Below, in pieces: positions 47,056-63,775 of a stretch of DNA of 64,000 nucleotides (the first letter of the stretch is position 1; the number at the start of each line of letters is the position of its first letter). The position numbers were made by a program, and so were the translations under genes. Source of the stretch: Burkholderiales bacterium (GTDB taxonomy: Bacteria > Pseudomonadota > Gammaproteobacteria > Burkholderiales > Burkholderiaceae_C); the NCBI GenBank assembly GCA_019509985.1, contig JAEKLF010000037.1:8127-72126 (forward strand), given 5' to 3'. A model generated the notes under the pieces. That model was not told the origin of the DNA. It saw only the letters and a list, made by a program, of their open reading frames with translations, and did no database searches.

Positions 47056-48840
47056 ATGCTGCTGATCCGTTTCGCCCTGGGCTTCTCGCTGTTCGAGACC
47101 CTGGTGCTGGCCGGCGTGCTGCTGGCCTGGGCCGACCGTGTGGCGGGCGGCCGGCTGCTGGCCGCGTTCCTGATCGGCATCGCGGTGTGGATCACCGGCA
47201 ACGAGCTGCCCAACTGGTTCGGCCTGGGCGCTGCACCCGTGGCGCTGCGGCTGATGGCCATGGCGCCGTTCGTGTCGGCGTTCTTCTTCCACTTCTGCGT
47301 GGTGTTCTGCCGCGTGCCGTTGGGCCGCGGCTGGGTGGTGGCGGGATACGCGCTGGGCGGCACGGCGTCGCTGTTGGCGCAGGTGTGGCGCGCCGCCGAG
47401 ATCGTCTGGTTCGAACCCATCGGCTGGATCGCCATCGCCGACCCGGTGGGGTGGGCCGCCAGCGTCGCCTGGATCGTGCTGGGCGTTGCCGGCGTGGCCG
47501 TGCTGCTGCGTGGCTTTGCGCAGGCGCAGCCGCCCGTACGGCAGCAGATCGCCGCGGTCACCGCGTCTTGCCTGTGGGGCCTGGTGTGCCTGAGCGGCTA
47601 CGGCCTGGTGCTGCTGCACCTGCCGGTCTACCCGGCGCCGCTGCTGCTGCTGCCGCTGTACCCGGTGATCCTGGTCTACGGCATCCTGCGCTGGGGCGTG
47701 TTCGTGGCCAACGCATGGGCCGGCCGCGCGCTGGTTTGGGCGCTGCTGCTGGCGGTGGGCGTGGCCATCGTGGCGCTGATGCCGCTGCTGCTGCCGTTCG
47801 AATCGCGCTGGCTCAACGGCCTGGCCGTGGCCGTCGGCTGCCTGGCGTTGAGCGGGCCGGTGCGGCGCTTCGTGCAGCGGCTGGTGTACCCCGGCGGCGA
47901 GGCCTCGGCCGCCGACCTGCAGGCCTGGCGCGAGGCGCTGCTGCCGGCTGAGACGCTGGATGAACTCGGCACGCGAGCCAACCAGCTGCTGAGCGCGCGT
48001 CTCGGCACGGCGGTCGAAGTCGTGTTCGATGCCGAAACGGCTCCCATACTGCCGCGCCTGAACTGCCACCGCGCGCCGTGGCGGCTGTCGTTGGAAGGCT
48101 GGTCCGCCGCGCCGCCGGGCCAGCGCCACCTGGCCGAGCTGTTCGGCAGCCTGGTGCTGGAGGCAGCCGTACGCGTGGAGCAAGCCCAGCAGCTGGCCGC
48201 CCGCGAGCGCGAGCGCCAGCTACAGGCGCGCTTGGCCGAACTGGGCGCGCTGGCCGCCACGGTGGCGCATGACATCCGCAACCCGCTGAACATCATCTCG
48301 ATGGCCGTGGCCACCGCCGATACCGACACCCGCCGCGAAGTGGCCGATCAGGTCGACCGCATCGCCCACCTGACGCGCGACCTGCTGGACTACGCCAAGC
48401 CGTGGAAGCTCAGCACCGCCGAGGTGGACGTGGCAGAGCTGGTGCGCCGTGTGGCGCGCCGCGCACCGGAGGTCGAGCTGGGCGCCGGCCTGCAGCAGCC
48501 GCTGCCGGCCACGCAGGACGCGCGCCGCGTGGAGCAGGCGCTGACCAACCTCGTCGAGAACGCGCGCACCGCCAGCTCCGGCGCCATCCACATCGACGCC
48601 GAGCGCGATGGCAGTCAGTTGAAACTGCACGTCTGCGACAACGGCCCCGGCGTGCCCGACGCCATCCGCGAGCGGCTGTTCGAACCCTTCGCGTCACGCA
48701 GCCCCGGCGGCACCGGGCTGGGCCTGGCCATCGTCGCGCGCGTGATGGCCGCGCACGGCGGCACGGCAGCCCTCACCGAGCGCCCGGGCTGGCGCACCTG
48801 CTTCACGCTGAGCTTCCCCGATGACACCCAACATCCCTGA
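47056..48840 (+). CDS. Membrane sensor histidine kinase (multi-TM N-terminus)
   Basis: About 8 TM segments, [28 protein letters not shown]. Confidence 0.88.
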
Positions 48841-50188
48841 AACCGGCCGCGTGATGCTGGTCGACGACGAGCCGGCGTTCCAGCGCCTGGGCGGCAACTT
48901 CCTTCGCAGCCTGGGCCACGAGGTGGACATCGCCGGCGACGGCGACGCGGCGCTGGCCCGCTTCGCCGAGCAGCGGCCCGAGCTGGTGCTGCTGGACCTG
49001 GCCATGCCGCCGCACATGGACCCCGAGCGCGGGCTGGAGCTGATCCCGCGGTTGGCCGGCGTGCCGGTCGTCGTGCTGACCGGGCACGGCGAGCACGAGC
49101 TGGCACTGCGCGCGGCGGAGCTGGGCGCGTGGGACTTCATCACAAAGCCCGTCGACCCCGACCTGTTGCGCTTCGTCGTCGCCCGCGCGCTGCGCAAGTC
49201 ACGGCTGGACGGCGAGCTGGTGCGCCTGCGCGCCGAACAAAGCACCGACGACCTGGGCCTGGTGGGGCAGACGCCGCCCATGCAGCAACTGCGCGCGATG
49301 GTGCGCCGCGTGGCGCCCACGCGCGTCAGCGTGCTGGTGCTGGGGCCTACGGGCACCGGCAAGGAGCTGGTGGCCCGCGCGCTGCACGACGGCAGCCCGC
49401 GCCGCGACGGGCCGTTCGTGGCCGTGCACTGCGGCGCGCTGTCGGCCGAGCTGCTGGAGAGCGAACTCTTCGGCCACCTGAAGGGCAGCTTCACCGGCGC
49501 CTACCGCGACCAGCCGGGTCTGGTGGAGGCCGCACACGGCGGCACGTTGTTCCTGGACGAGGTGGGCGAGATGCCCGCGGCCATGCAGGTCAAGCTGCTG
49601 CGCTTCTTGCAGGAGGGCAGCTTCGTGCCGGTGGGCGGTCGGGTGCAGAAGACCGCCGAAACGCGCGTGGTGGCCGCCACGCACCGCGACCTGGAGGCGA
49701 TGGTGCGCGACGGGGCATTCCGCGAGGACCTGTACTACCGCTTGAAGGGCGTGGTGCTACGCACGCCGCCGCTGGCCGAGCGCATGGCCGACGTGCCGGT
49801 GCTGGCCGCGCGCTTCCTGCAGCGCGTGGCGCCGCAGGCGCGCTTCTCGGCCGGGGCGCTGGCCTGGGTCACCGCGCGCGACTGGCCCGGCAATGTGCGC
49901 GAGCTGAAGGCCATCGTCGAGTCGGCCGGCGCGCTGCTACTGCCCGAGCAGAACGAGGTCGACACCGAACTGCTGCGCCTGGCCGCCGGCGACCACAGCG
50001 AGCCAACGCGCGCCGTCGAGCCGACCGCCAGCACCGGCGTGCTGGACGCGGCGCTGAACGAACTGGAGCGGCGGTTGATCCAGGACGCGATGAGCGCGGC
50101 CGGCGGCAACCAGTCCGAGGCCGCGCGGCAGCTTGGCGTGTCGCGCGTGGGGCTCATCAAGAAGCTCACGCGGCTGGGGCTACGCTGA
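48821..50188 (+). CDS. Sigma54-dependent NtrC-family response regulator
   Basis: REC domain (LVDDE, LLDLAMP), [23 protein letters not shown] (GAFTGA-like loop), [16 protein letters not shown], Fis-type HTH. Confidence 0.93.
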
Positions 50189-50548
50189 GCCGAACTCCTT
50201 CAACCACTGCCTGAGCTTTTTGCGCCCGTCGCTGTTGGTGCCGCGAAAGGCCTTGAGCGCCTGAGCGAGGAACTGCTGCTCGGCGGGCGTGAGGCCCGTC
50301 GGCTCGCGCTCCTCGTCGATCCAGCCGGCGGGCTTGGCGCAGTGGTGCTCGATCTGGCGCGCCAGCTTATCGCCGATGGGCCGGGCACCGCTCTTGGCCA
50401 TGGACCAGGTCGCGCCGCTGACGCCGATGCGCGCAGCCCAGGTGGCCTCCAGACCCTTGGGCGGGTCGCCCGCGGTGATGCGCTCCTCGGCGAAGCTCTG
50501 GAAGAGCGCGAGGGCGTTGAGCCGGCGGATGGCGGTGGGGCTGGACAC
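50180..50548 (-). CDS. Small HTH (XRE-like) protein, divergent from the tRNA/rtcB operon
   Basis: WAARIGVSGATWSMAKSGARPIGDKLARQIE...GWID resembles phage-repressor-type HTH domains; GTG start. Confidence 0.6.
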   Translation of the reverse strand: MSSPTAIRRLNALALFQSFAEERITAGDPPKGLEATWAARIGVSGATWSMAKSGARPIGDKLARQIEHHCAKPAGWIDEEREPTGLTPAEQQFLAQALKAFRGTNSDGRKKLRQWLKEFGSA

Positions 50549-50569
50549 GTGATGAGAGCGATCGACCGA

Positions 50570-50584
50570 GTGTTGTTAAAACAC
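50570..50584. promoter_or_regulatory. Palindromic operator candidate 1
   Basis: GTGTT-N5-AACAC. Confidence 0.45.
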
Positions 50585-50614
50585 TTCACAAGCATTCTAG
50601 GTGGTGCGCCGCGC

Positions 50615-50643
50615 TTGACCGCGACGTGAACAGTTTTCACAAT
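50615..50643 (+). promoter_or_regulatory. Sigma70-type promoter with overlapping palindromic operator
   Basis: TTGACC-N17-CACAAT; GTGAA-N5-TTCAC (50626-50640) overlaps the -10 box. Confidence 0.62.
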
Positions 50644-50714
50644 GCATGGATTCGCTCAACGCCGTTTGGCACTCGAACAACCCCCACCCGACCGAACCAC
50701 TTCCGCCCCCCGCC

Positions 50715-50894
50715 ATGAACCGCCACCTCTTCAACGTCATCGCACACCTCGGCTCTTCGAGCCGGCGCGATGGCGCCTGGATGGCGCCGGTCGAGGGACC
50801 GAAAGCGGAGGGCATGCAGCCCCAGGTCGCCTATGCCCACGACTGCGGTCGTGATCGTCATGACACCCACACATCGGGAGAAGGTCCCGGCTGA
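50715..50894 (+). CDS. Candidate leader peptide (59 aa; in-frame ATG also at 50646)
   Basis: Short ORF between the promoter and a terminator; stop is 23 nt before the terminator stem. Confidence 0.4.
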   Translation: MNRHLFNVIAHLGSSSRRDGAWMAPVEGPKAEGMQPQVAYAHDCGRDRHDTHTSGEGPG

Positions 50895-50917
50895 CGCCGC
50901 CCTTCCACGCTCTTCTG

Positions 50918-50958
50918 AGGCCCGGTATCCGCAAGGAACCGGGCCTTTTGTTTTGTTT
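50918..50958 (+). terminator. Intrinsic terminator / attenuator
   Basis: AGGCCCGGT-a-TCC-GCAA-GGA-ACCGGGCCT followed by TTTGTTTTGTTT. Confidence 0.85.
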
Positions 50959-51085
50959 CCGCCGCCGGGGCTGCCTCGGTGCCGCTGCGCAAGCGCAGCG
51001 CCTGCTCTTTCACAACTTGCATCGAGTGCCCGCCGACCACATCGGCGCGGCGCTCAAACTGGCAGGCGCCGAGGTTCGTCCTCGG

Positions 51086-51232
51086 CGGCCCTGCCCCATC
51101 TCGGGTGTGCCCACGCACAAGCATCGGCCGGCCCGGTGTGCATGTGCGCTCGGGCGGCCGCCTGTCGCGTGCAGCGACGCATCACTGGCTCGCGCAGGCC
51201 GGTCGCGTCGCGTGTGGACACAGCCGAGATGG
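51086..51232 (+). ncRNA. Candidate structured ncRNA with paired ends
   Basis: CCATCTCGG(g)TGTG pairs with CACA(g)CCGAGATGG; several internal hairpins; no convincing ORF. Confidence 0.4.
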
Positions 51233-51243
51233 ATTTGCCTTTT

Positions 51244-51318
51244 GCCCCGTTGGACTTCCGGTGAGGTCCTCGGCCCTTCAAGCCGAAGAGGCGGGTTCAA
51301 CTCCCGCACGGGGCACCA
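51244..51318 (+). tRNA. tRNA-Glu(TTC)-like, atypical C33
   Basis: GCCCCGT/ACGGGGC acceptor, GAC/GTC D stem, TCGGC-CCTTCAA-GCCGA anticodon arm, 4-nt variable loop, GCGGG-TTCAACT-CCCGC, encoded CCA. Confidence 0.8.
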
Positions 51319-51422
51319 GACCCTTCAACCCGAAGTCCCTCGTTGAGCTCACGCCCCGAGGGACGCAAACCGGCCGCAACGATTGGGCGGCGTCGGAACC
51401 CGTCACCGACAACCTTTCCCGT

Positions 51423-51499
51423 CCGGGCGTAGCTCAGCCAGGTAGAGCATCTGCTTTGGGAGCAGAGGGTCGCACGTTCAACTCGTGTCACCCGGACCA
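51423..51499 (+). tRNA. tRNA-Pro(TGG)
   Basis: TAGCTCAGCCAGGTAGAGC D arm, TCTGC-TTTGGGA-GCAGA, GCACG-TTCAACT-CGTGT, ACCA end; one C:A mismatch in the acceptor stem. Confidence 0.88.
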
Positions 51500-51509
51500 A
51501 CCATTTCAT

Positions 51510-51585
51510 GTCGCCATAGCTCAGCTGGGAGAGCGCCGGTCTGTCGAACCGGAGGTCGCGGGATCGAGGCCCGCTGGCGGCGCCA
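51510..51585 (+). tRNA. tRNA-Asp(GTC), atypical T loop
   Basis: GTCGCCA/TGGCGGC acceptor, CCGGT-CTGTCGA-ACCGG, T loop ATCGAGG instead of TTCRANY, GCCA end. Confidence 0.82.
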
Positions 51586-51692
51586 CATTTTTCTCCTGCG
51601 TGTTGTGCCACGTAGCCGTCCGGCTGCGCACCCGCATGCAACAGTCGGAGCACCGCTCCATCCACCGTGCCAGCCCAGGAAAGGAGGTCACC

Positions 51693-52253
51693 ATGCACGA
51701 CGTTTTGCAGTTGGACATCACCGGCCTTCCGCAGGCCTGGATCTCGGTGGAGGACGCCGCCGGCCTCGTGGCCACCGACTCGGTGGTCTGGTCAGCCGGC
51801 GAGCGGCCACTGGCCGTGCTGCGGGGCGGCTTCAACACCGTTACCGGCCGCCAGTCGATGCTGGAGGTGCCGCCCATCGTGGCCCTGCGCGGCGTGTCGA
51901 GGATAAACCTCTTCGACCTGACGCCGACCTTCAGCAAGCTCAAGGTCATCAAGCGTGACCGTTGCACCTGCGCCTATTGCGGCGACGTGTTCGACCTGCG
52001 TTCACTGACCGTGGACCACATCCAGCCCGACAGCCGCGGTGGGTCCTTAAGCTGGATGAACACGGTCGCGGCCTGCCGCAGCTGCAACATGCTGAAGGCC
52101 GACCGCACGCCGGACGAGGCCCGCATGCCGCTGCTGTTCGCGCCGTTCGTGCCCAGCCGCTTCGAGGACTTCATCCTCAAGGGCCGGCACATCCGCGCGG
52201 ACGTGCACGACTGGCTGGCTGCGCGCCTGCCGAAAGGATCTCGCCTCAGCTGA
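51693..52253 (+). CDS. HNH endonuclease
   Basis: AGGAGG RBS; RDRCTCAYCG...TVDHIQPDSRGG...WMNTVAACRSCNMLKADR. Confidence 0.92.
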   Translation: MHDVLQLDITGLPQAWISVEDAAGLVATDSVVWSAGERPLAVLRGGFNTVTGRQSMLEVPPIVALRGVSRINLFDLTPTFSKLKVIKRDRCTCAYCGDVFDLRSLTVDHIQPDSRGGSLSWMNTVAACRSCNMLKADRTPDEARMPLLFAPFVPSRFEDFILKGRHIRADVHDWLAARLPKGSRLS

Positions 52254-52383
52254 GGCGACAACGAATCTGCCGAGGAAAGCAGAGCGCTCACAGGTCGGGG
52301 TTTCGAAGCCCCACCGGTGCGCCAGGACCGGGTCCGCCCGTCGTCTCGGCGTATGCCGCCCCTGCCGGAATCGACGGATAGCC

Positions 52384-52438
52384 CGTGAGGCAAGGTTGAG
52401 CCGCAAGGCATTGGGTTCGATTCCCAACTTCACGACCA
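52384..52438 (+). ncRNA. tRNA-like mini-RNA (acceptor stem + T arm + CCA, no anticodon arm)
   Basis: CGTGAGG/CTTCACG 7-bp stem, A-CCA, TTGGG-TTCGATT-CCCAA, GCC-GCAA-GGC hairpin in place of the D and anticodon arms. Confidence 0.6.
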
Positions 52439-52439
52439 C

Positions 52440-52506
52440 TGGATAGCTCAGTCGGGTAGAGCAACGAACTAGTAGTTCGTCTGTCGCGGGTTCGACTCCC
52501 GCTCCA
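52440..52506 (+). pseudogene. Pseudo-tRNA (anticodon AGT) with broken acceptor stem and no CCA
   Basis: GCTC-AGTCGGGTA-GAGC, ACGAA-CTAGTAG-TTCGT, GCGGG-TTCGACT-CCCGC; only 4 acceptor pairs (TGGA/TCCA). Confidence 0.65.
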
Positions 52507-52772
52507 AAGCTTGGCCTTGAACGCCAATCCAAAACCGGTCGCAAGACCACCCGCCGAACGTGCGCCCCGGCCTTGGCCGGACCCGCGCATCAGCGGCCCG
52601 CGCTCGCGCGCCGGGCAAGCGGGGCTCTGCAACCACGGCCAGCCGAGAGCGTCTTCAGGGAGGAGGCGCTCGACGCGCACCGTGGCGCCAGGCCCTGGCA
52701 TCCGACGTCCGCACGGGTTGCTGTAACGGCACCCTCATCCCCATCACCACGCGTCACCACAAGGAGAACACC

Positions 52773-53909
52773 ATGACGATCAAGCGTGTGGCTGTGAAGA
52801 AGAACGAGCGCGGCATCCTGCTGCGCAATGGCGATTTCGAGCGCGTGCTGCAACCCGGCACGCACTGGCTGTTCGCCGGGCTGGACGAGCTGAAGGTGGA
52901 GCTGTTTGCCATCAGCCAGCCGGCCTTCGTGCACCTGCTGACCGACTACCTGCTGGCCAAGGAGCCCGCAGTCGTCGAGGCGGAGTTCCTGCGCGTCGAG
53001 CTGAACGAACACCAGGCGGGCCTGCGCACCGAGAACGGCGTGCTGGTCGAAGTGCTGCCGCCCGCCACGCGGCGCCTGTACTGGCGCGGCCTGGTGGACG
53101 TGCAGGTCGAGGTGATCGACCTGCGTGCGTCCGTCGAACTGCCCGCGGCCGTGGCCGCACGTCTGGCCCAGCCGCAACTGCGCCCGCGCGCGGTGACCGG
53201 CCTGGCCGGCGTGCTGCAGGTCGAGGTGCCGGAAACCGGCGCCGGCCTTCTGCGCGTGGACGGCAAGGTGGAGCGACTGCTGACCGCGGGTGCTTACGCC
53301 TTCTGGCGGTTCAACCGCAACGTGACGGTGGAGCTGGTGGACCTGCGGCTGCAGGCGCTGGAAGTGACGGGCCAGGAAATCCTGACCCGTGACAAGGTGG
53401 CGCTGCGGCTCAACCTGTCGGCCAACTGGCGCTACACGGACGTGCTGCGCGCGTTCGAGCAGTTGGCCAAGCCGGCCGACCACCTCTACCGCGAGCTGCA
53501 GTTCGGCCTGCGCGCAGCGGTGGGCACGCGCACGCTGGACGAGCTGCTGGAGAACAAGTCGGTCATCGACGAGGTCGTGACCGCCCAAGTGACGTCCAAG
53601 CTGGCCGGCTACGGCCTGCAGTTGGACGGCGTGGGCGTGAAGGACATCGTGCTGCCAGGCGAGATGAAGACCATCCTCGCCCAGGTGGTGGAGGCCGGCA
53701 AGGCTGCCGAAGCCAACGTGATCCGCCGCCGCGAGGAAACCGCGGCGACGCGTTCCCTGCTCAACACGGCCAAGGTGATGGAGGACAACCCCGTCGCCCT
53801 GCGCCTGAAGGAGCTGGAAACGCTGGAACGCGTGGCCGAGCGCATCGACAAGATCTCCGTGTTCGGAGGTCTGGACCAGGTGCTCAACGGGCTGGTGAAG
53901 CTCCGTTGA
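52773..53909 (+). CDS. Slipin (SPFH/band-7) family protein
   Basis: AAGGAG RBS; GQEILTRDKVALRLN, RAAVGTRTLDELL, RRREETAATRSLLNTAKVMEDNP..LRLKELE. Confidence 0.9.
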   Translation: MTIKRVAVKKNERGILLRNGDFERVLQPGTHWLFAGLDELKVELFAISQPAFVHLLTDYLLAKEPAVVEAEFLRVELNEHQAGLRTENGVLVEVLPPATRRLYWRGLVDVQVEVIDLRASVELPAAVAARLAQPQLRPRAVTGLAGVLQVEVPETGAGLLRVDGKVERLLTAGAYAFWRFNRNVTVELVDLRLQALEVTGQEILTRDKVALRLNLSANWRYTDVLRAFEQLAKPADHLYRELQFGLRAAVGTRTLDELLENKSVIDEVVTAQVTSKLAGYGLQLDGVGVKDIVLPGEMKTILAQVVEAGKAAEANVIRRREETAATRSLLNTAKVMEDNPVALRLKELETLERVAERIDKISVFGGLDQVLNGLVKLR

Positions 53910-53959
53910 GTGCCGCCCTGCCGGCTCGGCCGGCAGGGCTCCAACTCAAAGGAGAACCC

Positions 53960-54736
53960 ATGACTACGCCGTCATTGCAATCGGCCGTGCGGCGCGCCTA
54001 CGAAGTGTTCGGCGCCTACGCGGCACCCACCCAGCCGCTGGACGTCTGCACGTTCTGCTGCATGGACGAAGAACTGGAGCGCGAGATGCGCGCCGTGCCG
54101 TTGCGCAAGCTGAAGCGCCTGCACTTCTACGAGTACAGCACCGGCGCCAAGTCCGTCGATGGCCAGCCGGCCGACGAGGTGAAGTACCTGCTGCCACGCC
54201 TGCTCGAACTGCTGGCGGCCGGCGAGGAAACCCACCACTCGATCGAGCTGGCGCTGGATCGCGTGGGGCGCTGCCACGCCGGTGCCTTCAGCAACGAAGA
54301 GCGGGCCGTGCTCGACGCCTTCATGCTGGCCTGCTTTGACGCCTGCCTGCGCGGCGAGTGGGTGGCCGAGGACTTCTGGTACGACCTCGAAGACCCGCTC
54401 GCGCTGCTGGTGATGGCCGACTACGCCGGCCTCTCGCTGGCACCGTTGCTGCAGCACTGGACTGAACACCCGAGCCCGCAATCCACGATCCGCTTCGTCG
54501 AAAGCACCTACTGGGGTTTCTGGTCCAAGCACAAGATCACCAACGCCTTCGCGACCAACCGGCCGCGGCTGCAGGCAGTCTTCAAGGACTGGACGCTGTC
54601 GCTCGACACCAAGGCGGCCTTCACCATGAAGCTGCTGCTCCCTCATTTCCTGGATCAGGTCGAACAGACACCGTCCAACACCTGCGCGCCCTTCCCCGTG
54701 ATGGTGGACGCTGTGTTCGACCACCTGACCTACTGA
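53960..54736 (+). CDS. Hypothetical protein
   Basis: AAAGGAG RBS; CTFCC cluster, KYLLPRLLEL; co-oriented between slipin and rtcB. Confidence 0.7.
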   Translation: MTTPSLQSAVRRAYEVFGAYAAPTQPLDVCTFCCMDEELEREMRAVPLRKLKRLHFYEYSTGAKSVDGQPADEVKYLLPRLLELLAAGEETHHSIELALDRVGRCHAGAFSNEERAVLDAFMLACFDACLRGEWVAEDFWYDLEDPLALLVMADYAGLSLAPLLQHWTEHPSPQSTIRFVESTYWGFWSKHKITNAFATNRPRLQAVFKDWTLSLDTKAAFTMKLLLPHFLDQVEQTPSNTCAPFPVMVDAVFDHLTY

Positions 54737-54750
54737 TAGAAAGAACAATC

Positions 54751-55014
54751 ATGGAACCCCAACACATCCACGAAGACGTCCCCGGCGGCGTGCCACTGAA
54801 GATGTGGACGCAAGGCGTGCCAGTCGAAGACTCGGCCAAGCGCCAGCTGCAGAACGCGGCCCGCCTGCCCATCGTCTTCAAGCACATCGCCGCGATGCCC
54901 GACGTGCACTTCGGCATCGGCGCCACCGTCGGCTCGGTCATCCCCACCGTCAAGGCCATCATCCCGGCTGCGGTCGGTGTGGACATCGGCTGTTCTTCCG
55001 ACATCCACTTGTAA
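54751..55014 (+). pseudogene. rtcB: RtcB RNA ligase, 5' fragment interrupted at the DIGC motif
   Basis: LPIVFKHIAAMPDVHFGIGATVGSVIP...IIPAAVGVDIGC, then unrelated SSDIHL*; no rtcB remainder found in the window. Confidence 0.9.
54979..55008. other. Candidate recombinase core/attachment site (left junction)
   Basis: GTGGACATCGG-CTGTTCTT-CCGACATCCAC: 11-bp imperfect inverted arms (9/11) around an 8-bp spacer, exactly at the rtcB breakpoint. Confidence 0.6.
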
Positions 55015-55118
55015 CCCCATCCCGAAGCATGTAGGCTCCGCCCCCGAACAACGGGAACGAGTAGCCCCAGCCTCTTTTAGAGGCGAGTAGCCCTCCGCCC
55101 CACCGAGCAGGAGGAAGG

Positions 55119-55430
55119 GTGGCCATTCAGCGCAGATCGTTCGGAGTTGCCGTATTGGAGCGGCTGCGGGCCACCGCATGCACCACGGCCTTCGGGCGGT
55201 TGGATGGCCACTTCAAGCGCGATTCAACGTTCATCCCAACAAAGGACCCCAACACTGAGCGGTGGCACTGTTCCACCTCAAAGGGTGAGTGCGAGCTGCT
55301 GGTCAATGGCCCAAAGTGGTACGACACCAGAACCCGGGAGGGTGGAGGTGGCTCGATTGATCTAGCGATGCAGTTGTACCGACTCGACTTCGTCGATGCG
55401 GTGAACCTCTTGGTGGGCAGGGGCCTATGA
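55119..55430 (+). CDS. Small conserved-looking protein, first gene of the recombinase module
   Basis: AGGAGG RBS before GTG; KWYDTR..GGGGSIDLAMQL...DFVDAVNLL recalls the primase zinc-binding-domain tail; ATGA overlap with the next gene. Confidence 0.6.
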   Translation: MAIQRRSFGVAVLERLRATACTTAFGRLDGHFKRDSTFIPTKDPNTERWHCSTSKGECELLVNGPKWYDTRTREGGGGSIDLAMQLYRLDFVDAVNLLVGRGL

Positions 55431-56611
55431 ACCTCTACTTCAGCACCAAGGACTTTGCAGTCGACGGTCAGCACTACGAAGGCTTCCCGATTCTCGTGGA
55501 CGCCTCGGGTGCAGTTGTTGAGGTCGCCCTGCTCTTCTTCGTGGACGACCTCCTCAACCGCGGTGGCGCGCGAGACCTGAAAACGTGGGCTGCCTATGGC
55601 CGGCACATGTACGACTACTTCGGCTACCTGGAGCAGCGTCTGGCCTGGGATCACATCCCAGCTGAGGGTAGTGGACAGCTCTCACCACTAGCTGCCTACG
55701 TGCGATGGTGCGACACCGACGTCCGCAATGCTCCTGGCTACGTCAACGACAAGCGCGCGACCATCGAGCGCTTCTACGAATGGGCAAAGCGGGTCGGGCG
55801 CATTGATGAGCTGCCCTTCACCCGAAGTGAAGTCATTTCATCTAGCGCTGATGGGGTGCTTGCGCACGCCTCGGCAACTCGAGGCCGACGGTCGGCGTCC
55901 AACCTGCATCTGCCTGAGAACGACGACGACGTGCCAGACATGGTGCTGTCGCGTGGCCAGATCGACGCAGCGTTTGAACACGCGACGAATCCAACGCACC
56001 GTGCCGTCCTGCACCTGAGCCTGAATGCCGGGCTGAGAGCGGAGGAGCTCGCGACGTTCCCGATGAAGTACGTCGTCGACACCAGCAGGCTATCGCCCAA
56101 GGTGAAGACGGTGCCCGTGACCCTTGATCCGAAGGACATGCACACCAAGAACGACAAGAAGCGAACAGTGCGACTGTCGGTGCGGTGCATGAACCTGCTC
56201 TGGCAGTATCGAGAGGCCGTTAGGCCACGACTGAGGGCTCGGGCGAAGGGAGGCCCCGCCGACAGCGGAGTGCTGCTCCTGACCCGGTTTGGCGTGCCAT
56301 TCGTCGCCGACGGCTTCGTGTCACCCATGGCGCGCCTAGGGAAGCGTGCTGGATTCCACATCCACCCGCACATGCTCAGGCATACGTTTGCCACCCATAC
56401 GCTAGCCTCCCTCGAGGACTTGAAGCGTGCCGGCAGGCTCAGGAGCTCGCCGCTCGTGGTTCTCAAGCGTCTTCTGGGCCATTCGAAGACAACCAACACA
56501 GAACGCTACCTGCATCTGCTGGATTCAATCGAGGACGTCTACGGCACCCGCTACCAAGCGGAGATTGACGAGTTGGCGCTGGGGTATCTGAACGAGGCAG
56601 AGAAGAAGTAG
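55427..56611 (+). CDS. Tyrosine recombinase 1
   Basis: NAGLRAEEL (R), HPHMLRHTFA (HxxR), LLGHSK (H), TERYLH (Y). Confidence 0.92.
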   Translation: MNLYFSTKDFAVDGQHYEGFPILVDASGAVVEVALLFFVDDLLNRGGARDLKTWAAYGRHMYDYFGYLEQRLAWDHIPAEGSGQLSPLAAYVRWCDTDVRNAPGYVNDKRATIERFYEWAKRVGRIDELPFTRSEVISSSADGVLAHASATRGRRSASNLHLPENDDDVPDMVLSRGQIDAAFEHATNPTHRAVLHLSLNAGLRAEELATFPMKYVVDTSRLSPKVKTVPVTLDPKDMHTKNDKKRTVRLSVRCMNLLWQYREAVRPRLRARAKGGPADSGVLLLTRFGVPFVADGFVSPMARLGKRAGFHIHPHMLRHTFATHTLASLEDLKRAGRLRSSPLVVLKRLLGHSKTTNTERYLHLLDSIEDVYGTRYQAEIDELALGYLNEAEKK

Positions 56612-58219
56612 ATGGCGAAGAAGAAGGACTTCGGGGTCGGAGGGCCGCCACCGAAGCCGGTGATCCCCATTTTCCCGACGAGTAGGACGCTCGAACGTGC
56701 GGCCGTGAGCGCTCTCGTGATCCCGCTACCTCATGGCGTCGACGCGGAGTTCGATTGGTGGGAGTACCTCGGGCATGGGTTCGATGACACGGTGTCGGCT
56801 ATCACGTTGGAGATGCGCGCCATGGTTGCGCGCGGCAGACCGAAGCCCTTGGCCTTGAAAACCATCGCCAACGGCGGCGTGATTCACTGGTTCAGGTTCT
56901 GCGTTGAGCGCGCCTCTGCGGGCACACCACCGACGTTGGACAGCATCAACGCCGAGACGATTGAGGTCTTTGCCGGTTGGCTCGCGACCCGTTTGAAGCC
57001 CGACGGCGAGCTGTGGTCGTTGAACACTGCGCGGACGGTCTACCAGAAGGTCAAGACCGTGCTGGAGGCACTTGCAGATCGCAAACTGCTGCCAAGGGAT
57101 GGGCTGTTTCCTAAGAACCCTTTCCCGGGGGCCACTGACATCAACCGGCGCCGCAACCACATACTGCCTCTGTCTGATGGCGAACGAGAGCGCATCCTCC
57201 GCCCGCTGGCGATGCAGGTTGCCCAGGTGTACGACGGCACCCACCCCGGCACACCGTCGACGCAATTGGGGCTGTGCGTCTTTGCCATCTTCTTGAAGAC
57301 CGGCGTCAACCCCACCCCGTTCCTCGAAATCCCTCGGGACCTGCAGAAGTGCTTCATGAGTCATCCGCGCGTGAACACGAGGATTCTGGTGACCTTCAAG
57401 CGCCGGGCGAACAAGCGCACCAAGACGCCGCTGGAGCCTGAGTCTCGGGTGGTGTCGCTGGACGTCTATAAGCTCTGTGAGCGCGTTCTGGGCCTCACCG
57501 AGGGTGCGGCCAAGCTGGCGGTTGGCACGAAGCTGGAGGGCTTGCTGTGGGTCTACGAGCTCGATGGTGCACCCCGTGGCATGACGACCGAGACGCTGAG
57601 CGCCGTCGCCAACGCATTCACGTCGCGTCACGCCCTTGTGCGCGACGACGGCACCCGCCTGAAGATGAGCAGCCAGCTCTTCCGCAACACCAAGCTCAAT
57701 CGCGTCTGGCGAGCGTCCAAGGGCGACCTGCTCGCAACGGCGCGAAGCGGATCGAACACGCCGACTGCCGCTCAGCGATACCTCGCAGTCACTCCCGACA
57801 TGCTCGACGAACATCGCATGGCAGGCGAGGTGCTGGTGGACACCCTGTCGGCTGCCGGCCCGAGGGACAACACGCCGCACAGCGGCTGCAAGGATGCCTT
57901 CAACGGCGAGTTCGCGCCGAAGGACGGCTCGCCTTGTGTCGACTTCCTCTCGTGCTTCCGATGCAAGTCTCAGGTCATCATCCAGGACGACCTCTACAAG
58001 CTGTTCTCGTTCTATTGGGCGCTGTTTTCGCAGCGGAGCCACATTGGCCAAGACAACTGGCGCAAGCTCTTCGGCTGGGTCACGAGGGTGATTGACCGCG
58101 ACATCGCGCCGAAGTTCGATGCGACGGTCGTGGAACGAGAGAGGGCTCGCGCCCGCTCCGAACCACACCCGATGTGGCGGTCTCCGTCGGTCTTAGCTGC
58201 ACTGAGGTCCATCCAATGA
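56612..58219 (+). CDS. Tyrosine-recombinase-fold protein 2 with degenerate catalytic residues
   Basis: KTGVNPT (N at the usual R), QLFRNT, GSNTPTAAQRYL; C-terminal Cys cluster CKD..C..FLSCFRC; starts directly after the upstream stop. Confidence 0.7.
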   Translation: MAKKKDFGVGGPPPKPVIPIFPTSRTLERAAVSALVIPLPHGVDAEFDWWEYLGHGFDDTVSAITLEMRAMVARGRPKPLALKTIANGGVIHWFRFCVERASAGTPPTLDSINAETIEVFAGWLATRLKPDGELWSLNTARTVYQKVKTVLEALADRKLLPRDGLFPKNPFPGATDINRRRNHILPLSDGERERILRPLAMQVAQVYDGTHPGTPSTQLGLCVFAIFLKTGVNPTPFLEIPRDLQKCFMSHPRVNTRILVTFKRRANKRTKTPLEPESRVVSLDVYKLCERVLGLTEGAAKLAVGTKLEGLLWVYELDGAPRGMTTETLSAVANAFTSRHALVRDDGTRLKMSSQLFRNTKLNRVWRASKGDLLATARSGSNTPTAAQRYLAVTPDMLDEHRMAGEVLVDTLSAAGPRDNTPHSGCKDAFNGEFAPKDGSPCVDFLSCFRCKSQVIIQDDLYKLFSFYWALFSQRSHIGQDNWRKLFGWVTRVIDRDIAPKFDATVVERERARARSEPHPMWRSPSVLAALRSIQ

Positions 58220-60099
58220 GCGCTGCCCTGGCCTATGAGCTACATGCGGCTGCGTTGGAGCTGTCGCCGGCGGAGCGAGACGACCTCGTCATCTCGTACG
58301 TTCAGCTGGCGGGCGGCGAGCGCATTCCGCTCTCTCGCTACGGTGACCCCGTCTGGAACTACACGCCATTCTTCCCCGGCGCAGCCCGCGGCAAGCAGGA
58401 CAAGGAGATTGTCTGGGCCAAGACTCCTGACGAGTGGGTTCCGTCGATGCGAAGCGCAGCCGCTGCGCTCACATACCGCAAAGCTCCTGGCGGTGTCCGA
58501 CTGGACCCGTCGACGATCCCCAAACGGCACGTCATCCTGAATGCCTTCGCGAAGTGGGCCAGCTCAGAAGGCATCAGGCGCTTCGGCGACGTCCGCGCTG
58601 CCGACTTGACCAGGTACATCCAGAAGCTTCGCGACGACGGTCTCTACGACCGTAGCCTGGCCAGCCACATTGCCATCCTGCGCAAGGTACACGAGCTTCG
58701 GGGAGCAATGCTCGACAGCTTGACCGACGAAGCTGCGACCGCGCTGCGGTTTGACCAGCTCGGCGCGCTCTGGGAGCCTGACGCGGTCAACGACCGCCGT
58801 ACTGAGCTCATCCCGCTCGCTGAGGCGTCAGCATTGTTCGTGGCCGCCAGAGAGCACCTGACCAGGGCACCAACCCTACTGCGTCTGCGTGACGACCTGG
58901 CTGAACAGTGGGAGGCCGCAAAGGTCACCTGGGACCGGAGGGTATGGGGTGACGACGTCAAGAAGCCGGCGGTGCGAGCTGCTGGCTTCCGAGACGCCCT
59001 TGAGTTCGAGTCCGCCGTCAGTGACATCCGGACTGCGGCCTACATCGTCCTCGGCATCACCACGGGTTGCCGCGTCCATGAGCTTGGCGAGGCGGAGGTG
59101 GGCTGCGTCTATCCGGACACGGTCGACGGTGAGACGTATTGGTGGCTGAAGGCCGCGACGCGCAAGATCGGCGACGGACCGATGCGTTGGCTGGCACCTG
59201 AAGTGGCCAAAGAGGCCTCCGACGCCCTCGAATGGCACTCTGCCCCCTTGCGAGCCCGCATCGCCGCTGAGCTGCCTGTCATGCGAGAGCAGTTCACAAC
59301 CGCAACCACAGAAGCGGAAAGAGCCAGGCTGGCGGCGCATATTCTTGAGCTTGAGCGCAATGCCGACCGCTTGTTCCTGAGCGAGTCGACGCGGGGCGTT
59401 GTCTCAACCGACACCAAGTCGCACAACAAGCAACTAAAGGCCTTCGCTGCACGCAAGGGCATCAAGCTCGGCGTGCCGCTTGCCACCCACCGGTTCCGCC
59501 GCACCTACGCCGTTATCGTCGTGCATCTGAACAAGGGGCCGCGCATCGACATGGTGACGCTGCAGCGCCACTTCAAGCACGCGAGCGTGCTCATGACGGA
59601 GTGGTACGCCGAGCTGTCCGAGACCGACAGGGAGCTCTACGAGCTCATCGAGACGGAGACAGGCTTCTTCGACATGGCGCTGGTCGACCACTGGCTGGAT
59701 GGATCGACGCCGCTGGCCGGCGGCCTGGGTGCCCGAATCAAGGCGTACGCAGGCAAGCATCACCAGCCCATCTTCTTCAAGACCCGGCGCGAGTTCGTTG
59801 ACAGCATCCGGGAGGGCATCAACATCCGGAGCACAGGGCACAGCTGGTGCCTGGCAGAGGCGAAGGACTGTGGCGGGCAAGGGCTTTTCGATGCTCCCCA
59901 GTGCGGCAGTTGCGGCAACGGCGTCATCGACGACAACTTCCGAGAGGTGTGGCAGAACCTTCGTCAGGACCACGAGGACTTGTCCAAGCTCGACGACATT
60001 GGGCCTGGCGGCAGGGCAAAGGCGGCGAAGGGCCTCGCAGCGGCCGAAGCCGTCCTCGCACAGCTTGAACAACCTGACGACGAGACCGCCGATGTCTGA
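58216..60099 (+). CDS. Tyrosine recombinase 3
   Basis: TTGCRVHEL, THRFRRTYA, HFKHASVLMTEWYA; C-terminal Cys cluster; ATGA overlap with the previous gene. Confidence 0.88.
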   Translation: MSAALAYELHAAALELSPAERDDLVISYVQLAGGERIPLSRYGDPVWNYTPFFPGAARGKQDKEIVWAKTPDEWVPSMRSAAAALTYRKAPGGVRLDPSTIPKRHVILNAFAKWASSEGIRRFGDVRAADLTRYIQKLRDDGLYDRSLASHIAILRKVHELRGAMLDSLTDEAATALRFDQLGALWEPDAVNDRRTELIPLAEASALFVAAREHLTRAPTLLRLRDDLAEQWEAAKVTWDRRVWGDDVKKPAVRAAGFRDALEFESAVSDIRTAAYIVLGITTGCRVHELGEAEVGCVYPDTVDGETYWWLKAATRKIGDGPMRWLAPEVAKEASDALEWHSAPLRARIAAELPVMREQFTTATTEAERARLAAHILELERNADRLFLSESTRGVVSTDTKSHNKQLKAFAARKGIKLGVPLATHRFRRTYAVIVVHLNKGPRIDMVTLQRHFKHASVLMTEWYAELSETDRELYELIETETGFFDMALVDHWLDGSTPLAGGLGARIKAYAGKHHQPIFFKTRREFVDSIREGINIRSTGHSWCLAEAKDCGGQGLFDAPQCGSCGNGVIDDNFREVWQNLRQDHEDLSKLDDIGPGGRAKAAKGLAAAEAVLAQLEQPDDETADV

Positions 60100-63531: not shown

Positions 63532-63775
63532 GTGTCGCCCTCAAGCTGTATAGAACCGGATGCTACGAGACCGCCTGCTAGAGTCAGCCTTGAAGCCGGC
63601 GTTGCCGGCTTTCCTGCTTTTCCTCCCTGAGCAGGAGCTTCGGCTCGATGACAGCGACGAGGCTTTGCCGCCCCGGCATGTCCGGGGCGTTCTTTTTGGC
63701 CGACGCGCGGCCCGAGAAGCTGGCCTCCGCATGCCGCTTAACAGCCGTGTTACATTTTTCCTAGGGGGGAGAAAA

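Follow-up and report, generated by a model that had tools for sequence, protein, structure and literature searches.

An RNA-repair gene cluster of Burkholderiales with a putative repressor and a predicted leader-peptide attenuator in place of RtcR

Introduction

How can a gene cluster built around the RNA ligase RtcB be controlled if neither the activator RtcR nor a sigma54 promoter is there to drive it? This question is raised by positions 50180 to 55014 of a stretch of 64,000 nucleotides (nt) of DNA from a Burkholderiales bacterium (GenBank assembly GCA_019509985.1, contig JAEKLF010000037.1), which in its full length is called the window in the following. A preliminary description had seen in this segment an RNA-repair operon that responds to translation stress independently of RtcR and has its own repressor, an attenuator and an array of tRNAs and tRNA mimics. 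Here, we find that 50180-55014 is a member of a gene cluster that is widespread in Burkholderiales and whose parts are spare tRNAs, a nuclease, a tRNA-mimicking RNA, a slipin and RtcB. The comparison of related loci leaves the structural half of the proposal (independence of RtcR, an own repressor, an attenuator) well supported, while the physiological half (a stress trigger, spare or decoy tRNAs) is what we would infer from analogy.

The segment consists of three modules, namely a regulatory cassette, a short tRNA array with an HNH nuclease gene, and a unit of structured RNA, slipin gene, accessory gene and rtcB. The parts that the preliminary description had listed (promoter, leader open reading frame, terminator, structured RNA, tRNAs, HNH, slipin, a hypothetical gene and a helix-turn-helix (HTH) gene) were all recovered with ARAGORN, Rfam, Pfam and alignments, and most of them are kept in 30-45 related loci. 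The GC content is about 0.73 upstream, about 0.66 over the locus and about 0.61 (0.60-0.62) beyond position 55000.

Results

Two mutually exclusive modes of control for one core

For comparison, we retained 80 loci from Burkholderiales genomes among those of slipin homologues (of which there are more than 7500), and the proteins and tRNAs of the window were mapped onto each of them. Thirty of the 80 loci are of the type seen in the window (HTH type). They have a divergent HTH gene, followed by a co-oriented tRNA array, an HNH gene, a tRNA-like match about 300-400 nt 5′ of the slipin gene, the slipin gene itself, zero to two further genes, and rtcB. A further 11 loci are partial or truncated versions of this type, and 23 loci (from Acidovorax, Delftia, Hydrogenophaga and Simplicispira) have a divergent sigma54 activator instead of the HTH gene (RtcR type). 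In 67 of the 80 loci, rtcB lies downstream of slipin. The order HTH, tRNAs, HNH, slipin and rtcB, for which a search in Burkholderiales genomes had been proposed, does recur, with HTH gene, array and HNH gene together in 30 loci.

The activator of the RtcR-type loci is a true RtcR (PF06956, 4.8e-80), and all 23 of these loci carry a TGGCAC-N5-TGGCA promoter about 35 nt ahead of the structured RNA. No sigma54 (-24/-12) promoter was found at this place in any of the HTH-type loci searched. In the window, no RtcR domain was found; a tblastn search with the RtcR of Acidovorax matches only the AAA+ part of an NtrC-type regulator (49256-49918), and the sole sigma54 motif of the window sits within the slipin coding sequence. 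Over the 80 loci, the HTH gene and RtcR are mutually exclusive. The independence of RtcR is supported because the two regulators never co-occur, and because this locus has neither RtcR nor a sigma54 promoter. A possible refutation, that homologous loci might always depend on RtcR and sigma54, is likewise answered by the HTH-type loci, which are without both.

We describe the cluster as a predicted modular RNA-damage-response locus that is common to Sphaerotilaceae and Comamonadaceae. The core that both regulatory types share is an RNA of about 450 nt, a slipin, an optional accessory gene and the 3′-phosphate/5′-OH RNA ligase RtcB. In the window and about 40 other species, a different cassette is, by the same comparison, found in place of RtcR and sigma54, usually with a tRNA array and an array-type HNH gene behind it.

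A putative repressor with two candidate operators

The HTH gene (50180-50548, minus strand) runs divergently from the operon and encodes a protein of 122 amino acids (aa) that resembles lambda cI and Cro. It has no match in Pfam or NCBIfam, and its roughly 1500 homologues are nearly all unnamed or called 'hypothetical protein'. A model by AlphaFold2 (AF2; predicted local distance difference test, pLDDT, 85) has a five-helix cI-like fold, and its top Foldseek matches in the PDB are all repressor types (cI, Cro, XRE, C-protein, ClgR, SinR), the best of them being the Rep protein 5d50 (E 3e-3, prob 1.0); the E-values are weak, but the result is uniform.

A divergent homologue of this gene is found in 35 related loci, and the interval between the HTH gene and the first tRNA, which is 500-900 nt long, was compared in 36 loci. 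A promoter scan found a sigma70-type promoter, TTGACC-17-CACAAT (50615-50643, plus strand), the sole sigma70-like match in 5.5 kb (0.3 expected). Its -35 element TTGAC is kept in 34 of the 36 loci, 235-332 nt ahead of the terminator described below. Two operator-like palindromes were read from the sequence. One (O1, GTGAACAGTTTTCAC, 50626-50640) lies between the -35 and -10 elements and overlaps the -10; the other (O2, GTTAA-AACAC-TTCAC, 50575-50589) lies 27-41 nt upstream of the HTH start codon, and its counterpart in relatives reads TGTGAA-N5-TTCACA. Both follow the pattern GTGAA-N5-TTCAC and are inverted, not direct, repeats. At the O1 position of distant loci, the letters change to GTAAAG-ACT-CTTTAC, but the palindrome is kept. 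We thus regard the HTH protein as the putative repressor of the sigma70 promoter. The claim that the locus has a repressor of its own is supported by a cI-like predicted fold and by two palindromes, one of which covers the -10 element.

On the opposite strand, a pair of genes for a histidine kinase and an NtrC-type sigma54 response regulator (47056-50188) reaches 8 nt into the HTH gene at its 3′ end and is probably unrelated. This pair was considered as a regulator of the locus and rejected, since it is without an RtcR domain and adjoins the locus only in the window and in one relative (L008).

A leader with alternative hairpins and a terminator

Downstream of the promoter, an open reading frame of 59 codons (MNRHL...SGEGPG*) occupies 50715-50894 on the plus strand. 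Over 35 loci, this frame contains seven in-frame stops within the predicted transcript, compared to 70 and 72 in the other two frames, and shuffled leaders that went through the identical selection procedure gave 58 +/- 7 stops, with a minimum of 38. The case for translation of the leader is made by this depletion of stop codons, the codon-position test having come out weak or null. The sequence of the open reading frame drifts between loci except at its C-terminal end, where a PGEG(S/P)(A/G)-stop motif is kept (SGEGPG* or HPGEGSA*).

The end of the leader coincides with a set of RNA helices (50873-50906, plus strand) which we recognized by covariation. A covarying hairpin, P1, holds the stop codon in its loop and in most loci is placed 25-33 nt ahead of an intrinsic terminator. 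The latter (GAGGCCCGGT...ACCGGGCC followed by a T-run, 50917-50958, plus strand) was identified as a GC-rich hairpin and by comparison, a simple terminator scan having passed over it because its loop is longer than the scan allows. The terminator motif is present in 35 of 36 loci, the nine stem pairs of its core are invariant in 28 aligned loci, and one pair covaries between UA and AU. Ahead of P1, six nucleotides of the leader open reading frame ((A/T)(T/C)CGGG; ATCGGG at 50873-50878 in the window) can pair with the 5′ arm of the terminator (CCCGG(T/A)). This six-pair antiterminator helix is 96% paired among the loci, one of its pairs is AU in 12 and UA in 10 sequences, and none of 500 shuffles matches it. 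As long as the 3′ arm of the terminator has not been made, the minimum free energy structure is the antiterminator pairing around two hairpins, that is, a three-way junction, both in the window and in the distant locus L033; for the full-length leader, it is the terminator.

The comparison supports the view that the leader is built like a ribosome-dependent attenuator. The attenuator claimed for this locus has thereby gained an open leader frame, a covarying hairpin at the stop codon, an alternative pairing and an invariant terminator core, all of them in silico.

The HTH gene, operators, leader and terminator furthermore travel as one cassette, which stands before tRNA arrays, before slipin-rtcB, or before both, a modularity that is supported by two kinds of loci. 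On a conjugative plasmid of Methylibium petroleiphilum PM1 (L082, NC_008826.1 242157-254708), the same HTH gene, promoter, leader (...VHPGEGAA*) and terminator stand ahead of an array of 27 tRNA genes, which encloses genes for an AlkB dioxygenase and an HD-domain protein and ends in an HNH gene; slipin and rtcB are absent there. Conversely, three genomes (L024, L040, L046) have the cassette directly before the structured RNA, slipin and rtcB, with neither array nor HNH gene.

A large structured RNA as leader of slipin and rtcB

The interval of about 500 nt between the HNH and slipin genes is conserved far beyond what is found in ordinary spacer DNA. The preliminary description had placed four tRNA-like fragments here; these turn out instead to be modules of one structured RNA of about 450 nt (52286-52734, plus strand), for which RNAalifold predicts 89 pairs, 61 of them compensatory. 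It begins with 5′ hairpins (M1, 52286-52375), followed by a tRNA-like minihelix with a 7-bp acceptor stem, a T-arm and an encoded ACCA (M2, 52384-52438) and by a tRNA-like cloverleaf with an invariant D-arm, an anticodon arm, a T-arm and an acceptor stub of 4-6 bp without CCA (M3, 52439-52508). A GNRA hairpin follows at about 52537-52550, and a long and bulged 3′ domain, ending in CTGTAACGGCACC, extends to 52734. Pairing in the tRNA-like helices reaches 91%, covariation is seen at 21 of 32 pairs, and none of 500 shuffles comes up to this. The M3 region (52437-52510 in the span from ARAGORN and Rfam) reaches 47.5 bits with the Rfam tRNA model at 52440-52506, a match to model positions 4-67 only.

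Sequence blocks of this RNA also precede slipin in RtcR-type loci. On these grounds the RNA belongs to the core, as transcribed leader of the slipin-rtcB operon, and is not peculiar to the HTH variant. One difference between the types concerns M3, which in HTH-type loci has a 7-nt anticodon-like loop (52466-52472 in the window) and in RtcR-type loci a stem capped by a GNRA tetraloop in its place. The triplet in the M3 loop varies even among close relatives (AGT, AGC, CTG, GAT, CAT, GAA and others among L002-L081), while the D- and T-arms are invariant. In eight RtcR-type loci (L050, L051, L053, L055, L059, L064, L069, L072), the 3′ tail of the RNA (CGGCACCCTGATTGCA), which lies 50-75 nt ahead of the slipin start codon ATG, itself conforms well to a sigma54 -24/-12 element and might be a second promoter within the RNA.

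The tRNA array and its HNH gene

Between the terminator and the first tRNA lies a conserved multi-stem RNA (51094-51232, plus strand; 39 pairs by RNAalifold, 16 compensatory). The array itself holds three tRNA genes on the plus strand, which were found by ARAGORN and confirmed with Rfam: tRNA-Glu(UUC) with an encoded CCA (51244-51318, 51 bits), tRNA-Pro(UGG) (51423-51499, 58.6 bits) and tRNA-Asp(GUC) (51510-51585, 58.9 bits). This is fewer than in the usual 'long array', and the array size in HTH-type loci ranges from one to 20 tRNAs (20 in L033), with 27 on the PM1 plasmid. tRNAs nearly always carry U at position 33, and the array tRNA-Glu has C there; C33 or G33 is found in this tRNA in 13 of 26 loci. 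The array tRNA-Asp has an unusual 37-38 pair. Between tRNA-Glu and tRNA-Pro, there is a further RNA element of about 75 nt with three hairpins (51335-51412, plus strand), whose stems change compensatorily over 27 loci. Its segments (…GAGCTCACGC…GGCCGCAACGATTGGGCGGC…TCGGAACCCGTCACCGA) occur among array tRNAs elsewhere too, e.g. at about 4625-4720 of L004.

The HNH endonuclease gene (51693-52253, plus strand; 186 aa, Pfam HNH 2e-13) is of the type associated with tRNA arrays. Homologues lie beside the array on the PM1 plasmid, on plasmids of Variovorax, Polaromonas, Nostoc, Acaryochloris and Mycobacterium, and in jumbo phages, all of them places where tRNA arrays are known to reside. The stop codon of the gene falls within a perfect 16-nt palindrome (CGCCTCAGCTGAGGCG, 52242-52257), and relatives have a hairpin there, which echoes the leader open reading frame.

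An Rfam scan of 50400-55200 at E-values up to 10 found no family for the leader, the RNA past the terminator, the three-hairpin element or the 3′ domain of the structured RNA. The only meaningful matches in this range were the four of tRNA type, together with a match to YrlA below threshold.

The slipin, an accessory gene and a broken rtcB

The slipin (SPFH/Band-7) gene encodes 378 aa (52773-53909, plus strand; Pfam Band_7 2.9e-30). Slipins of the HTH-type loci are 78-97% identical to that of the window and those of the RtcR type 75-77%. The start of rtcB lies 842 nt downstream of slipin, with one gene in between. This accessory gene (53960-54736, plus strand) encodes a protein of 258 aa that has no match in Pfam or NCBIfam. 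Its AF2 model is all-alpha (pLDDT 92.9) and has no PDB match better than E 0.57, with a TM score of about 0.2. Members of this family occur in 10 loci, which include both regulatory classes. About half of the loci have no gene in the slot between slipin and rtcB; in the others it is occupied by one of a few alternative cassettes, namely the 258-aa family, a 246-aa family, a family resembling ClpP/SDH proteases and, once, a Ro60 (TROVE-vWA) protein (L054).

Of rtcB itself, only codons 1-81 are left in the window (54751-54993, plus strand; PF01139 1.6e-17), and they share 99% identity with the first 81 residues of the intact RtcB (405 aa) of L009. The gene breaks at ...ATCGGCTG|TTCTTCC (54993/54994), and its reading frame continues into an insert to a stop at 55014; the remaining 324 codons were not found anywhere in the 64-kb window. 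The N-terminus of RtcB is thus present as had been described. Since the gene is interrupted after codon 81, however, this copy cannot make RtcB, and the idea that the locus supplies the ligase does not hold here. We read the break as the insertion of a mobile element of at least 9 kb, and only functions upstream of rtcB could still operate in this copy. Intact RtcB is present in relatives such as L009 (Pelomonas candidula), L019 and L002, and likewise in Pelomonas sp. Root1444 (L006) and Roseateles asaccharophilus BE316 (L005). Three of the closest relatives (L003, L004, L010) have no rtcB within 6 kb, and L008 has codons 1-63 only (8996-9184). It would appear from this that the ligase was lost or disrupted more than once in this group of Roseateles.

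The inserted element, which starts at 54994, is not part of the system. It has a lower GC content, begins with overlapping tandem recombinase-like reading frames of 394, 535 and 641 aa (to 60099, plus strand), the first and third of which have Phage_integrase domains (55427-56611, 58174-60099), and reaches at least to 63531. Downstream of the recombinases lie a reading frame of 563 aa without domain and a gene for an Mrr-type nuclease. A search of PLSDB found nothing like the element, and none of the 80 loci holds a homologue of its recombinases. At 63611-63697 (plus strand), Rfam finds a match to the Burkholderia anti-hemB small RNA (RF02837, 56.1 bits, gathering score 49.5).

RNA from the cluster in environmental metatranscriptomes

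In five metatranscriptome assemblies from soil and plants, near-identical contigs lie over the structured RNA and are deeper there than over the adjacent coding sequences. The leader is covered in one assembly (50674-50859, run X9). The five assemblies hold no RNA contig over the HTH gene. The stretch 50935-51101, about 170 nt past the terminator, is also without RNA contig, and up to 51268 there is only a depth of 0.8 in one of the five runs, such that the RNA past the terminator (51094-51232) has almost no coverage. At a locus of the Pelomonas Root1444 type, a single RNA contig extends from within the HNH coding sequence into the structured RNA, and the depth declines from 22 over the structured RNA to 4-6 over slipin, 2-3 over the accessory gene and 1-2 over rtcB. 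These contigs fit with termination in the leader and with co-transcription of the downstream genes, short of proof.

Discussion

Our comparison points to a cluster in which an RNA-repair core has been placed under a putative HTH repressor and a leader-peptide attenuator that stand in for RtcR, and which would be read through when ribosomes lag. We consider this account rather probable. According to it, a dimer of the HTH protein would bind the two GTGAA-N5-TTCAC palindromes and repress both the sigma70 promoter and its own gene. Once transcription starts, the nascent leader would fold into the three-way junction and sequester the 5′ arm of the terminator. A ribosome that finishes the 59-codon leader at the stop codon within the junction would melt it, such that the terminator forms and transcription stops. 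If ribosomes lag or stall, because tRNAs are damaged or scarce or because inhibitors are present, the junction would persist, and polymerase would read through to the tRNAs, the HNH gene, the structured RNA, slipin and rtcB. The extra tRNAs of the array might then supplement or substitute damaged ones, and RtcB would reseal cleaved RNA, a task in which slipin and the tRNA-like RNA would serve as cofactor or scaffold. A trigger by translation stress and the role of the array as spare or decoy tRNAs are suggested here by analogy with Anabaena (see below).

Several observations weigh against this account. The terminator by far exceeds the antiterminator in stability at equilibrium (-39.7 versus -26.9 kcal/mol). 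The switch must be kinetic for this reason, and we infer that prompt translation would lead to termination and lagging ribosomes to readthrough. No Shine-Dalgarno sequence can be seen for the leader open reading frame, which shows a weak third-position bias (172/162/238) and in distant loci none at all, and the conservation of the peptide end overlaps RNA helices, so that it may be partly driven by the RNA. Internal promoters for the tRNAs or the structured RNA are possible. The RNA data are assembled environmental metatranscriptome contigs, which are strandless, have no true depth and might include DNA carry-over or reads from related strains. All HTH-type loci may, to judge from the identities of their slipins, stem from one fusion event, and the conserved gene order is therefore worth fewer independent observations than the number of loci. 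Finally, the copy in the window has three tRNAs and a broken rtcB, and four of its closest relatives likewise have no intact rtcB nearby.

The last point leads to a reading that concerns this genome alone, namely that its copy is a decaying remnant without any selected function left. The interruption of rtcB after codon 81 would fit with this, as would the three remaining tRNAs, compared to 5-20 in many relatives, and the absence of nearby rtcB from L003, L004 and L010 and its truncation to codons 1-63 in L008. However, every other open reading frame is intact, the regulatory cassette and the RNAs agree with the consensus of the family, and identical sequence is found in metatranscriptome assemblies, all of which makes decay somewhat unlikely.

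It is also conceivable, though we regard it as doubtful, that the cluster chiefly counters toxins that cleave tRNAs, such as contact-dependent or colicin-type anticodon nucleases or the nucleases of phage defence, rather than translation stress in general. M3 would then be a bait or sensor, and the array tRNAs would be nuclease-resistant substitutes. tRNA fragments that end in a cyclic phosphate reportedly activate RtcR, and in phage tRNA arrays altered anticodon loops are reported to provide escape from anticodon nucleases. In the loci compared here, the M3 triplet differs from one close relative to the next, M3 being otherwise almost invariant, a GNRA cap replaces the M3 loop in RtcR-type loci, and C33 or G33 occurs in half of the array tRNA-Glu genes (13 of 26 loci). 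Set against this, the locus has no linked nuclease gene of that kind, and the loop, if unconstrained, could simply have drifted neutrally.

A third alternative holds that the modules are juxtaposed without being coupled: a self-mobilising long array, consisting of HTH gene, leader and homing HNH gene, would have been inserted before the unit of RNA, slipin and rtcB and would have displaced rtcR, and the resulting order would since have been passed on by descent, with downstream expression being incidental readthrough. Such a unit does stand alone on the conjugative PM1 plasmid, relatives of the HNH gene adjoin arrays on plasmids and in jumbo phages, the GC content of the locus is below that of its flank, and the HTH-type loci form one slipin similarity group. 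Long arrays are, moreover, thought to spread horizontally with HNH as homing enzyme (PMC8421152). We nonetheless consider mere juxtaposition unlikely. Three genomes keep the cassette directly before the RNA, slipin and rtcB without array or HNH gene, which looks like regulatory use; no other recognisable promoter for slipin-rtcB was found in any HTH-type locus; an RNA contig connects HNH with the structured RNA; and Anabaena co-regulates the same four types of genes even though they are dispersed there (PMC10272220).

A more far-reaching version of the toxin idea, which we offer as speculation with no great expectation of it being right, would make the RNA of about 450 nt a damage sensor or bait that mimics, through the fast-changing anticodon loop of its cloverleaf, whichever tRNA of the cell is attacked by anticodon nucleases. 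Its cleavage on a slipin scaffold would report the attack and RtcB would reverse it, the attenuator would independently read ribosome stalling, and the array would provide resistant tRNAs, for instance tRNA-Glu without U33. If this were true, the cluster would be a self-contained island of tRNA immunity, and the RtcR and HTH types would use different sensing logic for the same core.

That the leader is an independent small gene for a peptide or small RNA with its own terminator, the downstream genes being transcribed from other promoters without attenuation, is quite improbable. In favour of it, the terminator is strong and the core of its stem invariant, RNA contigs over the leader essentially leave out the next 300 nt, and the 139-nt RNA past the terminator could mark a separate transcription unit, but no promoter-like site was found 3′ of the terminator, the spacing between the end of the reading frame, the hairpin and the terminator is fixed (25-33 nt in most loci) with covarying alternative pairing, and co-oriented cargo always follows the cassette.

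With control by repressor and attenuator as the favoured account, the cluster bears on the questions of what bacterial RtcB acts on, what Rtc systems sense and why RtcB keeps company with slipin and a tRNA-like RNA. It amounts to a natural experiment, in which the same core of RNA, slipin and RtcB has been placed either under RtcR and sigma54 or under a putative repressor and an attenuator, the latter together with spare tRNAs. The two versions are both found in cultivable bacteria of soil and roots (Pelomonas, Roseateles, Acidovorax), so that they are directly testable. Four conserved RNA elements without an Rfam family also come out of the locus.

Relation to known systems

How does this arrangement compare with what has been described elsewhere? 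In ribosome-dependent attenuators, such as those of trp, pyrBI and antibiotic-sensing resistance leaders, a short translated reading frame ends by alternative hairpins and a terminator. The layout is the same here, but with about 60 codons the leader is long, and it varies save for its last six residues. A run of regulatory codons and a Shine-Dalgarno sequence are both missing, and the stop codon lies in a hairpin loop inside a three-way junction.

The Rtc operons under RtcR and sigma54 (E. coli rtcBA, Salmonella rsr-yrlBA-rtcBA and that of P. aeruginosa) have the same ligase as the cluster described here, and those of Pseudomonas and Acidovorax also have a slipin and a structured or tRNA-like leader RNA; the RtcR-controlled rtc locus of P. 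aeruginosa contains the slipin PaFlo8 (PMC13086221). The window, by contrast, is without RtcR, CARF domain and sigma54 promoter, and has a sigma70 promoter, an HTH gene, a leader open reading frame and a terminator. With the YrlA RNA and its partner Rsr (RF02553), the cluster has in common a tRNA-like domain in an RNA encoded beside rtcB. The match is, however, at 21.7 bits compared to a gathering score of 69, the architecture is different, and there is no Rsr/TROVE protein in the window.

As to arrays, the tRNA long array (L-array) with HNH (Santamaria-Gomez et al. 2021) is resembled here by an HNH gene beside a short array, with homologues of the HNH protein on Nostoc, Acaryochloris and Mycobacterium plasmids. 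The trn L-array of Anabaena PCC 7120 with its linked HNH gene stays silent unless translation is inhibited, in which case rtcB is induced along with it (PMC8421152). The ribbon-helix-helix repressor TrcR controls this array, two HNH genes, rtcB and an operon that contains a slipin gene, and the authors call it functionally equivalent to RtcR (PMC10272220). The parallel with Anabaena drawn in the preliminary description is thereby stronger than claimed, as array, HNH, rtcB and slipin are all held together in the TrcR regulon (PMC10272220). Both systems combine an array, an array-linked HNH gene, rtcB and a slipin, and repression, which is putative in the cluster, takes the place of RtcR in both. 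They differ in that TrcR is a ribbon-helix-helix protein acting on direct repeats at dispersed genes, whereas we find a protein modelled as cI-like HTH, inverted repeats, one co-oriented cluster and a leader-peptide attenuator. Induction by antibiotics has been shown in Anabaena; for the locus described here it is suggested by analogy.

Our search of the literature, outside of which lies the 2016 paper of Burroughs and Aravind, found no description of this Burkholderiales arrangement. A likeness in the core exists nonetheless, since slipin adjoins rtcB and a tRNA-like RNA lies just upstream in both the cluster and an earlier predicted system. Burroughs and Aravind (NAR 2016), as quoted in bioRxiv 10.1101/312249, are reported to have predicted this RtcB/Band-7/b7a-tRNA system for RNA repair. 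A further likeness is the Ro60/TROVE protein that is occasionally found in the accessory slot (L054). The part of the description that was available to us speaks of a tRNA-like RNA only; in the cluster, the tRNA-like part is one domain of an RNA of about 450 nt with a second minihelix and a large 3′ domain. The window does not hold an intact RtcB (81 of about 405 codons). Compared to the system as quoted, the variant described here adds a tRNA array, an HNH gene and the cassette of HTH repressor and attenuator. The cluster thus joins two lines of work that have been separate, the predicted Band-7/b7a-tRNA repair system and the TrcR regulon for translational stress in cyanobacteria. As far as these sources go, the core of Band-7 protein, b7a-tRNA and RtcB had already been predicted, and its arrangement with an HTH-attenuator cassette and a tRNA array is new.

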